A stretch of 18,841 bases of DNA from Promethearchaeota archaeon Loki_b31 (GCA_005222975.1 NJBI01000059.1:1-18841), one strand, 5' to 3'; counted from the stretch's first letter, positions 5,036 to 8,866 are shown. Numbers and translations are program-made. The notes: a model not told the origin generated them from the letters alone.

Positions 5036-6553
5036 TTACCTTGTGCTCTGGATAAATCCTCTTTCCTTATTCTGTTCCTTTTCCCATTTTTTACGTTCTG
5101 AACGCAAATTAAAGAGATCAATATCCTTATAGATTAAGTTTTCTTCCTTTGATTGTATCATTCTATCAACTCGTTCCTTTTCTGGAGTGTATATGAGAGA
5201 ATCGCCGAATTCTGCAACATTAGCGAAGAAACAGTAGGCATAGATAGATCTGCGAGCATCAAAATGTGCTGCCTTGAAATCAGCCGTTACTGGGGTAAAA
5301 GCTGGGTTAAGAATTATATCCACCGGTGGCTCAAAATTCTTTAACTCTACCCTAAGGTCCATATCTAGGAAGTCTCGGCATATAATGATCGCGATTCTCC
5401 CAAACTCTGTATTGCAGATGATTGTTTTTCGAGGCGTGATTCCAACATCTATTCCTTCCTTGAATCTCTTGCCCTCAAGGTGTATAATAGCTGGGATGTG
5501 TTTCTCTTGCTCCCAGAGAATACCGTTAGGTCCTATTACTACGCTGAGATTTCGTTTTGTTTCTTGATCGTGATAAGATCCTGGAATTATATACATCTCA
5601 TTAGTTTTGGCAAGATTGGATATATCTTTTAGTAATTCTCCGTAGTTGAGGTCAATAGTCATTTCTGGGAAGAGTAAAATGTTAATTCCTTTTGTGTTGG
5701 CGATCTTAATCATGTTTTTGACATTAGATCTTATGATTTCGACTTTATCCTCTCGAAGGCTGAGAAGACCTGCAACTTTTTCTTCATAGAACTCGCGTAG
5801 GATATCGCTTGTATTAGATAGACCTATTTGGGCAATACCAACTCTGCATTCCCGCCTCTGGATTCTTGGATACTCTTCGAGCAAGTTCCTGTAGATAAGT
5901 TTGTATTTCTTTTTTGCCGTTCTTTCTTCTAGAACTCTTGTTGATTCCTCGGTAAGCTTATGTATTTCGCTCATTCTTGGAGATAGGCTAGTTTCTAGGG
6001 GACATGCAGGAGCGACAATGCCCACAGTACTCCCAGTGATGGAAGGTGTTTTTATGGTGTTTAAAGCTGATACAAGAATCATTTCTTCTTTCTCTAGCAT
6101 GATAAGGTGTTCTAGGATTTCTTTTTCCTTATATTTATAGCCCGCCTTACCGAAAAGTTCTGATGCTGATTTAAAAAGATTAACCACAACTTCTAGAAGC
6201 CTTTTCTTTTTATCGAGCTCCTTCTCCTCATCTACCTTGATTAAATGCCATGTTGCGTCAAAATAGGCTGAAGTAGCCAGTGTCCAGTCAGCCTCTCCTT
6301 CAAAACCACCCTTGCGATATGATACAGCAGCATTTCTAAGATTCCCCTTGATTTTAGGATATAATTGTGCCTTATTTTTCGTTTCAGATTCTTTGTCAAA
6401 TTTAGTTCCGTGTTCGAGGGCTTTGCAATAAGCAGAATTACCTGAAACTAATAGCTTCATTTTACTATCGGCGAAAAGCCTACTTGCTTTTGTAAATAGA
6501 TTTGCTGCTTCTAAAAATCTATCGGGATCTTCATATTGTTCCCCGAGTTCCAT
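5036..6553 (-). CDS. C-terminal part of a TPR-like solenoid + carbon-nitrogen hydrolase (nitrilase) protein
   Basis: Nitrilase E-K-C triad motifs LFPEM, EQEKHIP, IICRDF; helical repeats upstream. Same frame as 6614..8866 and separated from it by one TAA. Confidence 0.85.
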   Translation of the reverse strand: MELGEQYEDPDRFLEAANLFTKASRLFADSKMKLLVSGNSAYCKALEHGTKFDKESETKNKAQLYPKIKGNLRNAAVSYRKGGFEGEADWTLATSAYFDATWHLIKVDEEKELDKKKRLLEVVVNLFKSASELFGKAGYKYKEKEILEHLIMLEKEEMILVSALNTIKTPSITGSTVGIVAPACPLETSLSPRMSEIHKLTEESTRVLEERTAKKKYKLIYRNLLEEYPRIQRRECRVGIAQIGLSNTSDILREFYEEKVAGLLSLREDKVEIIRSNVKNMIKIANTKGINILLFPEMTIDLNYGELLKDISNLAKTNEMYIIPGSYHDQETKRNLSVVIGPNGILWEQEKHIPAIIHLEGKRFKEGIDVGITPRKTIICNTEFGRIAIIICRDFLDMDLRVELKNFEPPVDIILNPAFTPVTADFKAAHFDARRSIYAYCFFANVAEFGDSLIYTPEKERVDRMIQSKEENLIYKDIDLFNLRSERKKWEKEQNKERGFIQSTR

Positions 6554-6613
6554 GCTTTCCCAAGCTTTACAGAGGAAATATATAGCCTCTAGTTCTTTTC
6601 GTTCTCTCTCGAT

Positions 6614-8866
6614 TTAAAAAAAAAAGCAAATATCTCTAAATTGAGATGCTGCGTCTGTAAATTTTTCTGCAGCAGCAACATGTTCGCCATTTTTTGCTAG
6701 TATTCTTGCATTTTCGACATTTCTCCTTGCGGAACAATAGTTGATTCTTACTTTAGCTAATTTCTTGAGTTTCTCTATTCTTTCTTCTTCACTTTTCTCT
6801 TTAGACTTCTTTAAGGCACTTTCCAGCATTTTTATAGAGTTGTTGAAATTCTTTATGGTTGTTTCAAATCTCTCTATGGCTTCTTGGTGCTTTTCCTGCT
6901 TACTGAAATGTTCTGCCTCCTCCAATGAATTCCAAGCAAGGTAATATAGTGCTTCATAATTGTAACTAGGCAGTTTTTCCAAAATTTCACATGCTTTTTG
7001 GTAGTTTTCCATAGCTTCTAAGTGATTTTCTCTTTTATGATACGCCTTAGCTCTTTCGATTAGGCTCCAAGCACACGCATAGTCTATTTTCTCCTTGACA
7101 CTGTTTTTTAAAGGTTTATATTCGATAGTTTCCAACGATTCTACATGGATTTTTTGGGCTTTCTTGTAGTGATCTGCGGAAGCCATGTGATTACCCAGTC
7201 GATCTTCTATATGTGCGATGTATTCATGGGCGGCAGCTGTGTAGGAATGAAAACCCCTTTCACGGCTTTCTTTAATCACGCTTAGGAAAGTCTTTCTCAC
7301 CTTCATTAGTGTATCGATTTCCCCAGTTGTGATGCCTAGCTCTTCATAGAGAAACCCTAATCGCATTTTGGCTGCTATAATGCCAGTCCGAGGCCACATG
7401 GCGTGTTCTATGTTCTTCTTGGATGCATCTGTGGCAACCGATAGCATTTTAATTCTGTCTTCTTTGCTAATGGCAATGTCTGCGAGAGTTTTATAGGCTC
7501 TGTAGAGGCTTGAATAACCGACAGCTCGAGTAAATCCTCCTTCGTATTTTTCAGCAATTTTTTCAGCTTCTTTCGCGTACTGAAGCATCTTTTGGGCATA
7601 TTTTTCCTGCTCATCCTTCTCTTTAGAAAGAACGGTTAACTGCGAGTGCACCCAAGTCAACATTTGATATGGCCATGCAAAATAGGGTTCGAAAGCTAGT
7701 TTCTTTAAAGACTCTTTGGCGTGTTCAATCCCTTTTTCAGCATATGATTTTCTCTGGTCTGGAGTGAAAAAACCCCTTGGAGCAATAGTGGCATAATAGA
7801 CTGCAGGTAAAAGATTTGAGTAGTAACGCCAAATGCTATATAAACCTGTATATCTCTTTCCTAACTCTATGATCTCATGAAGGTCGTACACAATTTTCTT
7901 CAGGATGAACTCAAATCTTCGAACAGAAATGGCGATCCAATATAACCACCATAGGGCGTTAATTATTAGGGATTTATCCTTTGTTTTCCTAGCAAAACCT
8001 ATACTCATTTTCATCAATTCTAATCCTTTGTTGGTATATTTTCTCTGCTCTTTTTCATCCTCAATAAATTGAAATCCAAAACCACCATACAAACTACCAG
8101 CCATAGAGTAGATTATTCCTAGAATAAAAGGATCATTACAATCTTCTGTAACCTTTAAACTTTCATCACATCTCAGAAGGCATTTTCTGAAATGTTCCTT
8201 CTGGCGCTCATCCGACTTCAAAGTCACGATAGACAATATCATGAAAATTAGCATCCTTTCGGCAAGTAATGAATCGGCGAGGGATTGAAGATTACCAATC
8301 TCCTTTGAAAGATTCCAAGCTCTAACTGCTATGTTTCTGCCTTTTTGATAAACCTGTTCAATTTCCTTACGGTCACTACAATAAGTTATTAGTAAAAACG
8401 AGGTCATTGCTGCACGACTCAAAGTCCTTGCAATACTCTCTTGATCTTCATCTTTGGAATAAAGTTCACTTGATTTAATGAAAAGTTCATAAGATTTGCT
8501 GAATGAATTCTTCGCTTCAACAACAGAATCCGCAACAAACCCGCTAATATAGAACGCTTCTGCTTCGCATTCCAATTCCTCGGGACTATTTTTCTTATGT
8601 TTAAAGAGATTTGCAGCATTCTTATAAGCATTGACCCCACGATTGATTTTTTCTATAAATTCTTCAGTTGTTTCTGTTGTCTCGGCCCCTCGTGAATAAG
8701 CATATCCAAGCTTCTTATAAACTCCTTTAGCCTTTTCTACCATTTTCTTATCCAACAAAGATTTCGCGACCTGCTCGTACAACTTAGCTGCTTCCATCCA
8801 ATTGTAAACATTCTCCTCAACGTTAGCTCTTTCTAATAACACACTTTCGTTCTCATCTTCCGTCAT
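6614..8866 (-). CDS. N-terminal TPR/SNAP-like alpha-helical repeat part of the same gene (ends at an in-frame TAA)
   Basis: Repeated A-x-x-x-Y-x-x-A-x-x-L helices (WMEAAKLYEQVA, NHMASADHYKKA, NHLEAMENYQKA); the frame continues past the stop as IERERKELEAIYFLCKAWESM. Confidence 0.75.
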   Translation of the reverse strand: MTEDENESVLLERANVEENVYNWMEAAKLYEQVAKSLLDKKMVEKAKGVYKKLGYAYSRGAETTETTEEFIEKINRGVNAYKNAANLFKHKKNSPEELECEAEAFYISGFVADSVVEAKNSFSKSYELFIKSSELYSKDEDQESIARTLSRAAMTSFLLITYCSDRKEIEQVYQKGRNIAVRAWNLSKEIGNLQSLADSLLAERMLIFMILSIVTLKSDERQKEHFRKCLLRCDESLKVTEDCNDPFILGIIYSMAGSLYGGFGFQFIEDEKEQRKYTNKGLELMKMSIGFARKTKDKSLIINALWWLYWIAISVRRFEFILKKIVYDLHEIIELGKRYTGLYSIWRYYSNLLPAVYYATIAPRGFFTPDQRKSYAEKGIEHAKESLKKLAFEPYFAWPYQMLTWVHSQLTVLSKEKDEQEKYAQKMLQYAKEAEKIAEKYEGGFTRAVGYSSLYRAYKTLADIAISKEDRIKMLSVATDASKKNIEHAMWPRTGIIAAKMRLGFLYEELGITTGEIDTLMKVRKTFLSVIKESRERGFHSYTAAAHEYIAHIEDRLGNHMASADHYKKAQKIHVESLETIEYKPLKNSVKEKIDYACAWSLIERAKAYHKRENHLEAMENYQKACEILEKLPSYNYEALYYLAWNSLEEAEHFSKQEKHQEAIERFETTIKNFNNSIKMLESALKKSKEKSEEERIEKLKKLAKVRINYCSARRNVENARILAKNGEHVAAAEKFTDAASQFRDICFFF

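Follow-up and report, generated by a model that had tools for sequence, protein, structure and literature searches.

What kind of protein joins roughly a thousand residues of helical repeats to a single nitrilase domain, and to what end would an archaeon carry it? The question is raised by a stretch of 18,841 nucleotides from Promethearchaeota archaeon Loki_b31 (GCA_005222975.1, NJBI01000059.1:1-18841), hereafter the window, which is a complete 18.8-kb contig of a 3.5-Mb metagenome-assembled genome (MAG) of 92% completeness and 6% contamination. Its minus strand carries, between positions 5036 and 8866, a solenoid-nitrilase gene that, read through one internal stop codon, encodes 1276 amino acids (aa). 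We propose, at roughly even confidence, that the locus is a member of an accessory, Asgard-restricted family of single-polypeptide receptor-enzymes, acting most likely in a conflict setting.

An earlier sequence-only reading had treated 5036-8866 as one frame of about 1276 aa, with some 1000 aa of helical repeats ahead of a nitrilase domain, and had seen a compositional offset that it called suggestive. Open reading frame (ORF) calls agree with the single frame, apart from an interruption which that reading omitted: on the minus strand, 6614-8866 (750 aa) and 5036-6553 (505 aa) are called as ORFs of the same frame, with one TAA between them at 6614-6616. The offset in composition is real but moderate, the gene's GC content of 0.382 standing at the 92.7th percentile and its third-position GC (GC3) of 0.353 at the 96.3rd percentile of the genome's 1441 long ORFs, while 500-nt windows give a GC of 0.35-0.42 across the gene versus 0.26-0.33 in the flanks. 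NCBIfam assigns no family to the 1276-aa protein.

The two-part architecture also stands up to modelling with AlphaFold2 (AF2), in which residues 1-990 were modelled from a 65-sequence alignment and residues 772-1276 from one of 62 sequences. Residues 1 to about 930 form 37 helices in a superhelix resembling tetratricopeptide repeats (TPRs), and Foldseek pairs it with long TPR scaffolds, namely Ctr9, Ski3, the IFT-A TPR subunits and TTC7B (E 1e-10 to 1e-6); with a TM-score of 0.2-0.4 and 9-13% identity, the likeness is one of overall shape, a generic fold resemblance. Pfam TPR matches to the window protein are below threshold (TPR_12, 23.7 bits against a cut-off of 30.1; TPR_6, 25.1 against 26.3), and PF13424 or PF14938 rises above it in some homologues. 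Behind the repeats lies a short linker, nearly invariant at P941, S946, G949, I950, P953, C955, E958 and S962 across 65 sequences with five types of C-terminal head. Its predicted local distance difference test (pLDDT) score is about 30 in the model of residues 772-1276, as against 72-88 for aa 930-965 when modelled with the solenoid, a difference consistent with a linker that packs against the solenoid.

The head itself is a divergent nitrilase with its catalytic residues in place. With Pfam CN_hydrolase (PF00795) the last ~210 aa of the protein score 32 bits, above the curated threshold of 23.2 (E 1e-7), and a scan of the genome gives 34 bits; the triad noticed in the sequence-only reading, E1068 in FPEM (5663-5665), K1122 in QEKH (5501-5503) and C1163 in ICRD (5378-5380, all on the minus strand), is intact and, like a second glutamate, E1137, invariant or nearly so in alignments of 13 and 62 sequences; the extreme C-terminus, FIQSTR, is invariant among homologues. 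AF2 models the head confidently as the alpha-beta-beta-alpha sandwich of nitrilases (pLDDT mostly 85-97). Foldseek matches it to mouse Nit2 (2w1v, E 2.4e-11, TMt 0.69) and to 6ypa, 1j31 and 5h8j (up to E 2e-9), which include the Pyrococcus PH0642 amidase and plant N-carbamoylputrescine amidohydrolase, the top matches being 14-20% identical. Against PDB sequences, phmmer gives marginal matches to Nit2 (E 0.024) and to the anti-phage protein DRT1 (9yfd, E 0.25), and a profile of the family finds Nit2 alone (E 0.005). Defence-library profiles also match: PADLOC pairs the window head with CARF_nitrilase (E 1.6e-14, 51 bits) and RTasNitrilase (E 5.4e-11, 40 bits), and, among relatives, a P-loop form at 56 bits (RTasNitrilase E 6e-16) and a TPR form with UG5-nitrilase (E 1e-11). 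The genome's three or four ordinary carbon-nitrogen (CN) hydrolases, of 266-279 aa, reach 103-130 Pfam bits versus 34 for this head. A HMMER search of 1.84 billion representatives returned 317 matches at E<1e-3, of which about 50 at E<1e-30 represent the module itself, followed by a gap to E~1e-13; the distant matches are multidomain proteins with leucine-rich repeats (LRR; 7), HEAT repeats (6), nSTAND3 (6), PUA and other domains, and those few that are named belong to other archaea, among them a Methanobacterium nSTAND3 NTPase and a Nitrosopumilus protein. On these measures the head is not a housekeeping amidase.

The nitrilase module is itself mobile: at 63-77% identity it also occurs behind canonical TPR_12/MalT-type arrays (520-670 aa), behind a P-loop domain and half a solenoid (870-882 aa, with weak Roc/AAA matches), and behind protein-kinase, alpha/beta-hydrolase, beta-helix and Arf-like domains. 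Two further module architectures were noted in P0125 and P0124: linker, possibly longin-like domain and nitrilase; and nitrilase after an AAA/STAND-like P-loop, then TPRs and an alpha/beta hydrolase.

How widespread is the full-length protein? A search of 5.8 billion protein clusters gave at least 734 matches, the best 120 of which are 1097-1294 aa long (119 of at least 1229 aa), 54-94% identical, and in almost all cases cover 96-100% of the query; their sources, where named, are Promethearchaeota/Lokiarchaeota, Thor-, Hod- and Hermodarchaeota MAGs, and their only annotation is 'carbon-nitrogen hydrolase family protein'. A scan of one genome per species (185,579 species) found 262 stretches encoding relatives, and the best 80 of these are from Asgard MAGs, bar one 4-kb scaffold labelled Pacearchaeota. 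In the phylum itself the family is present in 155 of 400 genomes, 34 of 90 high-quality ones, and 20 of 41 in the window's own genus, which makes the gene non-core; at least two copies, frequently arranged in tandem, are found in many genomes, with arrays reaching at least four genes (L043), and copy numbers are minima as two candidates were scored per genome. By these sequence searches the family is accessory and Asgard-restricted. Upstream of about 21 of 81 family genes (250 nt upstream, L003-L072) are shared 9-mers such as TATTAATCA and TTCAAAGTA, which may mark a common promoter or regulator site; the window gene's own upstream region has a loose version only.

Whether the same solenoid carries other effectors, as the sequence-only reading had suggested might be asked, has a clear answer. 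Matches that span only residues ~1-990 sit in open frames of 1070-1310 aa, and the 14 retrieved carry, after the same linker, a TIR_2 domain (E 1e-17 to 7e-13) in which the S..V..E motif is kept, a calcineurin-like metallophosphoesterase (E 4e-12), a RING-like CxxC finger of ~50 residues, or a ~130-residue domain with no Pfam match. On a FastTree phylogeny of 65 solenoids, in which L016 and L072 are long, unreliable branches, the head type changes at least 7-8 times, with TIR in at least 2-3 clades and the finger in three; the window solenoid is sister to that of locus L033, and this pair is sister to a finger-headed one. The exchange is sharpest between a finger-headed protein (L007) and a nitrilase-headed one (L040), which are 86% identical over residues 1-1008 and unrelated beyond, placing the swap junction just ahead of the nitrilase's first strand. 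The window protein has the whole of this layout, an end-to-end solenoid and linker with a head joined at about residue 1008. The Pfam-less domain may be longin/Roadblock-like, a lead drawn from an Atlas feature (score 0.90, rank 11) and from likeness by eye. It also ends a TPR protein elsewhere in the window's genome (G000:C78:28890-30716), flanked by Ras-like GTPase genes at 24640-25173 and 30868-31395.

The front of the solenoid is variable too. Column conservation is 0.40-0.51 at aa 100-350 and ~0.75 at aa 700-950. The closest inter-genus relative is L033, which belongs to a genome of another genus (G145). The two genomes share a unit made up of the gene and short borders, with unrelated flanks. 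Nucleotide identity along the gene is 89% over nt 1-150, drops to 59-71% over nt 151-1650 and returns to 95-100% from nt ~1700 to 3828; correspondingly, the proteins are 94-98% identical at residues 561-1276 and only 38% at residues 201-350, as divergent there as far more distant members of the family. In G145 the orthologue of the neighbouring glycyl-radical enzyme gene lies on a different contig and is 72% identical. These comparisons show that genera have recently exchanged the back portion of the gene and that a different cassette makes up its front half. The boundaries of the unit, inspected by eye, showed no evident repeat or dif-like site. The coordinates are collected in Table 1.

Table 1. 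Features of the solenoid-nitrilase locus, in window coordinates.
Feature	Position	Strand	Basis or remark
Whole solenoid-nitrilase gene	5036-8866	-	1276 codons and a closing TAA, with a break at codon 751; aligned end to end with uninterrupted homologues
TPR-like alpha-solenoid, aa 1-940, 37 helices	6047-8866	-	AF2 model ma08ab30618e4 (pLDDT 91, predicted TM-score, pTM, 0.83); Foldseek; weak Pfam TPR
Variable solenoid front, aa ~51-560; mosaic segment relative to the closest inter-genus relative	7187-8716	-	Column conservation; L033 identity
In-frame TAA, codon 751	6614-6616	-	T10/A3 boundary; in place of nearly invariant family Lys (AAA)
Conserved linker, aa 941-965, with APACP, common to all head variants	5972-6046	-	65 sequences, five head types
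Helix before the nitrilase, aa 966-1008; head-swap junction at its end	5843-5971	-	Model helix 965-989; L007/L040 comparison
Divergent nitrilase-superfamily head, aa 1009-1276; E1068, K1122, E1137, C1163; tail FIQSTR at 5039-5056	5039-5842	-	Pfam, alignments, AF2/Foldseek, PADLOC
Unit shared with other-genus genome: gene, ~70 nt downstream, ~118 nt upstream	4970-8984		blastn against L033, L078, L079; boundary alignments

A variable array behind which effectors are interchanged suggests a receptor, and a mechanism can be sketched. The variable front of the solenoid would bind a macromolecular ligand, and binding would free or reorder the linker and head and gather heads together; nitrilases, like TIR domains, depend on oligomeric assembly for activity, and the invariant C-terminus may complete a neighbour's active site, by analogy with DRT1. 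The assembled head would cleave a C-N bond in an amide or amine substrate, in a setting that would most likely be biological conflict (defence or self/non-self), with signalling also possible. Ligand sensing, gating by linker and oligomer, the C-terminal lid and the conflict role are what we infer here. A more ambitious version of the proposal, unlikely in its full extent, would have giant TPR solenoids whose ligand-binding fronts move as cassettes, across genus boundaries too, and whose heads (nitrilase, TIR, RING-like E3, phosphoesterase, possibly longin-like) are swapped at a fixed junction, with some lineages wired to a ubiquitin operon and the nitrilase serving as an oligomerisation-gated effector on a new essential amide or amine substrate.

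Known systems supply parts of this picture. In DRT1, the nitrilase forms a tetrameric core, activity requires assembly, and conserved, domain-swapped C-terminal residues act as an active-site lid; nitrilase and phosphohydrolase are, moreover, two alternative effectors of class 3 UG/Abi reverse transcriptases (RTs) (PMC13275509). DRT1 (UG1) and UG5 (PDB 9yfd; PMC13275509; PMC13436386) resemble the window protein in their build, a large single chain whose helical repeats precede a divergent C-terminal nitrilase bearing a catalytic tetrad, in their conserved extreme C-terminus and in the match to the RTasNitrilase profile, and both the DRT1 class and the window family alternate the nitrilase with a phosphohydrolase-type head. 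DRT1 is bacterial, whereas the window protein is archaeal (Asgard) and lacks the RT domain and DNA-adduct regulator, having the 940-aa TPR-like solenoid as its N-terminus instead; Pfam, NCBIfam and PADLOC detect no RT domain in the protein or its neighbours. Because the similarity to 9yfd is marginal (even Nit2 scores better), DRT1 is treated as the closest known analogue and not as the protein's own family. The CARF-nitrilase ancillary proteins of type III CRISPR systems (PADLOC PDLC01989), whose profile is the best in the defence library for this head, likewise place a nitrilase as output behind a sensor, but theirs is a CARF domain that binds cyclic oligoadenylate, and the window has neither CARF nor CRISPR context. 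STAND-type, Avs and NLR-like receptors share with the family a variable repeat sensor joined to an interchangeable effector, tandem paralogues, patchy distribution and sensor recombination, and the window head's nearest relatives outside the family are fused to nSTAND3, LRR or HEAT. They differ in their P-loop NTPase switch, which Pfam and NCBIfam do not find in the window protein and which appears in the 870-882-aa sub-form only, and in the defence-island context that the window family lacks. Amidases of the Nit2/PH0642 type (2w1v, 1j31, 6ypa), the best structural matches (TMt 0.6-0.7), have the same fold and catalytic residues but are stand-alone metabolic enzymes of ~260-280 aa.

The surroundings of the family were surveyed at 71 loci, where most adjoining genes are metabolic or housekeeping ones (UbiA, CCG/Fe-S proteins, acyl-CoA dehydrogenase, methyltransferases, TauE, alpha/beta hydrolase, radical SAM, H+-PPase, M20 peptidase, HDAC), with several lineage-specific syntenies. 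At six of them, all in genera g1 and g12, the family adjoins a ubiquitin-type operon (L028:6884-13001, also L026, L027, L009, L049 and L063) that encodes an 85-aa Ub-like ORF ending in GG-Q, an E2 (UQ_con), an E1 (ThiF), a JAB protein and a membrane protein with a C-terminal RING, with a Ras-family GTPase gene upstream. In L026-L028, the gene for the P-loop, half-solenoid and nitrilase form stops 20 nt before JAB-E1-E2, and in L009 and L063 the same position, beside tandem solenoid genes, is taken by a stand-alone homologue (54-57% identical) of that form's N-terminal domain. The zinc finger head of 1069-aa solenoids is 36% identical (E 3e-10) to the operon's RING. The association does not extend to the phylum, however: in families f31-f33 the nitrilase family is present in 36 of 89 genomes and E2 in 3, while in f13 E2 is present in 31 of 31 genomes and the nitrilase family in none. 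Since E2 and the family do not co-occur phylum-wide, dependence on a ubiquitin system was rejected and the link is regarded as lineage-specific, a lead.

Several observations weigh against the conflict-receptor proposal. PADLOC, applied to 131 non-redundant flanking proteins, gave only scattered matches (mad2, three; mad3, mad8 and E1-E2, two each; AriA and CARF3, one each) and a scan of IMG/VR found no relatives in viral contigs, and on these grounds there is no defence-island signal at the 71 loci. Purifying selection on the nitrilase head is very strong, column conservation reaching 0.86-0.93 in its C-terminal half; signalling would account for the RING-like and possibly longin-like heads as readily as conflict would; the docking of the linker is read solely from the difference in pLDDT between models; and the resemblance to DRT1 itself is, in sequence, marginal. 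Of the sequence-only notion of a sensor-gated hydrolase, possibly defensive, the first part thus survives as the best mechanistic model, given the modular heads, and the second does not fare as well, with few PADLOC matches in the flanks, no viral relatives and a premature stop in the window copy.

Three other readings of the family compete with this one. One, the stronger form of the sequence-only claim, is dedicated antiviral abortive infection, in which the solenoid would act as sensor of a viral protein, leaving the nitrilase to deplete an essential metabolite bearing an amide or amine, as proposed for DRT1. It draws on the same evidence of modularity and diversification as the receptor-enzyme proposal, and the alternation of nitrilase with metallophosphoesterase here parallels that of nitrilase and phosphohydrolase effectors in class 3 UG/Abi RTs (PMC13275509); the TIR heads with their preserved motif and the PADLOC nitrilase profiles point the same way. 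With defence-island enrichment not seen, IMG/VR devoid of homologues and, by text search, no mention of the family in an Asgard virome/defensome survey or an Asgard structural-modelling study, we judge it possible but on the unlikely side. A cellular role is offered by the reading in which the protein serves Asgard ubiquitin and small-GTPase machinery as a regulatory scaffold: substrates would be received by the solenoid, and the heads (RING as E3, nitrilase as a protein amidase or isopeptidase-like enzyme, the longin-like domain as a GTPase regulator) would modify or route proteins of the cell instead of combating invaders. The six operon-adjacent loci, the P-loop form abutting JAB-E1-E2 and its N-terminal-domain homologue beside tandem solenoid genes would all suit such a scaffold, as would the kinship of the finger head with the operon RING, the recurrence of the Pfam-less head behind TPRs between two Ras-like GTPase genes, the housekeeping flanks and the strongly conserved nitrilase. 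The counts of E2 and family across the phylum speak against it, and adjacency confined to two genera may be one lineage-specific juxtaposition; nor would TIR and metallophosphoesterase heads, a hypervariable, recombining front and inter-genus transfer be expected of a housekeeping regulator, and we consider the scaffold doubtful, a weaker candidate than abortive infection.

Least probable by far is an ordinary core metabolic amidase with a structural TPR extension. Database annotations ('carbon-nitrogen hydrolase family protein' or 'predicted amidohydrolase') and the top structural matches, Nit2, PH0642 amidase and N-carbamoylputrescine amidohydrolase, are what such an enzyme would give. The gene is not core, though, even in its own genus; non-amidase domains replace the head in relatives; the family profile retrieves nothing from PDB but Nit2, and that weakly; and separate, ordinary CN hydrolases are present in the same genome. 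The receptor-enzyme proposal is the one we retain.

Is the window's own copy a working member of the family? More than 700 homologues have an uninterrupted reading frame, and this one is broken at codon 751, a Lys in 12 of 12 aligned homologues, where the window shows AAA>TAA at the point at which a run of ten T meets three A. Because TAA is the normal terminator of 16 of the 20 window ORFs, it is not reassigned here, and recoding or programmed read-through, considered as an explanation, is unsupported. In public sequencing runs, for which alleles were taken from assembled contigs and runs with under half of the words left out, cold-seep run X2 gave contigs 100% identical to the window with A at 6616 (plus strand) at a depth of 3.2, and runs X1, X3 and X4 gave contigs 95-99% identical with T at that position, which encodes Lys. 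Past the stop the frame is unshifted and there are no departures at the 117 nitrilase columns that are at least 95% conserved; with downstream frame and conserved columns intact, the stop is either of very recent origin or an error due to low coverage. We give a nonsense mutation of very recent date slightly better than even chances, and an assembly error at low coverage is the less probable alternative, though a serious one.

A broader possibility is that the interruption is no defect at all, whether as an assembly error at 3x depth in an intact gene, as a split into two polypeptides (the 750-aa solenoid and a 505-aa piece starting from the ATG at 6551-6553, 20 codons beyond the stop) or through read-through, and to this we give somewhat less than even weight. 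The A allele is found in one run alone, at shallow depth, the substitution lies at a homopolymer boundary, and the sequence beyond it retains frame and conserved columns. Yet the allele recurs in both the window and the Logan assembly of X2, though possibly from the same reads; none of the 120 best homologues is split, and stops occur in just 3 of about 150 listed genome matches; the ordinary use of TAA in the window leaves no place for recoding; and ongoing loss fits both the absence of the family from half of the genus and the decay of a second copy. The gene is the sole solenoid copy in this genome. On another contig (G000:C96:63576-63731, minus strand) ~50 codons (~150 nt) survive from the 3' end of a further nitrilase-module gene; the remnant is 54-60% identical and decayed, with TAA stops, which suggests that a second family member was lost. 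The window copy is probably dead or mis-called, and its value is as evidence for exchange of the sensor-half cassette, transfer between genera, and gain and loss of the family.

Immediately upstream and co-oriented, as the sequence-only reading had it, is a Sir2 remnant (9001-9471, minus strand), the C-terminal 60% of a CobB-type deacylase covering only profile positions 72-180 of 180. Its N-terminal ~70-85 residues are missing and homology begins right after a T18 homopolymer (~9513-9530); either the gene is a pseudogene cut short, or the contig was joined at that run during assembly. Its top NCBIfam match, CobB protein deacylase, falls below cut-off from the truncation, PADLOC has no match for it, and it is thus not a complete defence-type SIR2; a functional link to the solenoid gene was rejected, the ORF being truncated, CobB-type, unmatched in PADLOC and outside the unit shared with L033. 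Further along (10030-13953, minus strand), a PFL-like glycyl radical enzyme of 799 aa, whose top NCBIfam match, TIGR01774, stays below cut-off, is followed by a protein of 365 aa; in the latter Pfam finds 4Fe-4S ferredoxin domains only and no activase radical-SAM domain. A 276-aa leucine-rich-repeat protein (14097-14927, plus strand) has as its top NCBIfam matches the LRR regions of the Xanthomonas effectors XopAC, XopAE and XopL, and no PADLOC match. Two toxin-antitoxin-like pairs on the plus strand, an 89-aa ORF overlapping a PIN-domain gene (15416-16100) and an MNT nucleotidyltransferase gene that overlaps one for a HepT RNase (17110-17764), are both located between two enoyl-CoA hydratase paralogues.

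The family of ~1,275-residue Asgard solenoid-plus-head proteins is apparently undescribed; no account of it was found in the literature on Asgard nitrilase, TPR and TIR proteins, with most subscription journals outside the coverage. Nitrilase effectors entered the defence field only recently, through DRT1, and a second, independent and much larger family, in which the same kind of head is mounted on a different sensor and alternates with TIR, RING-like and phosphoesterase heads, provides a comparative handle on what nitrilases do in such proteins. If these are indeed receptors of immunity or conflict, they would represent an NTPase-free form of NLR-like logic in the archaea most closely related to eukaryotes, and their partial link to a ubiquitin operon would bear on the origin of ubiquitin-coupled immunity.

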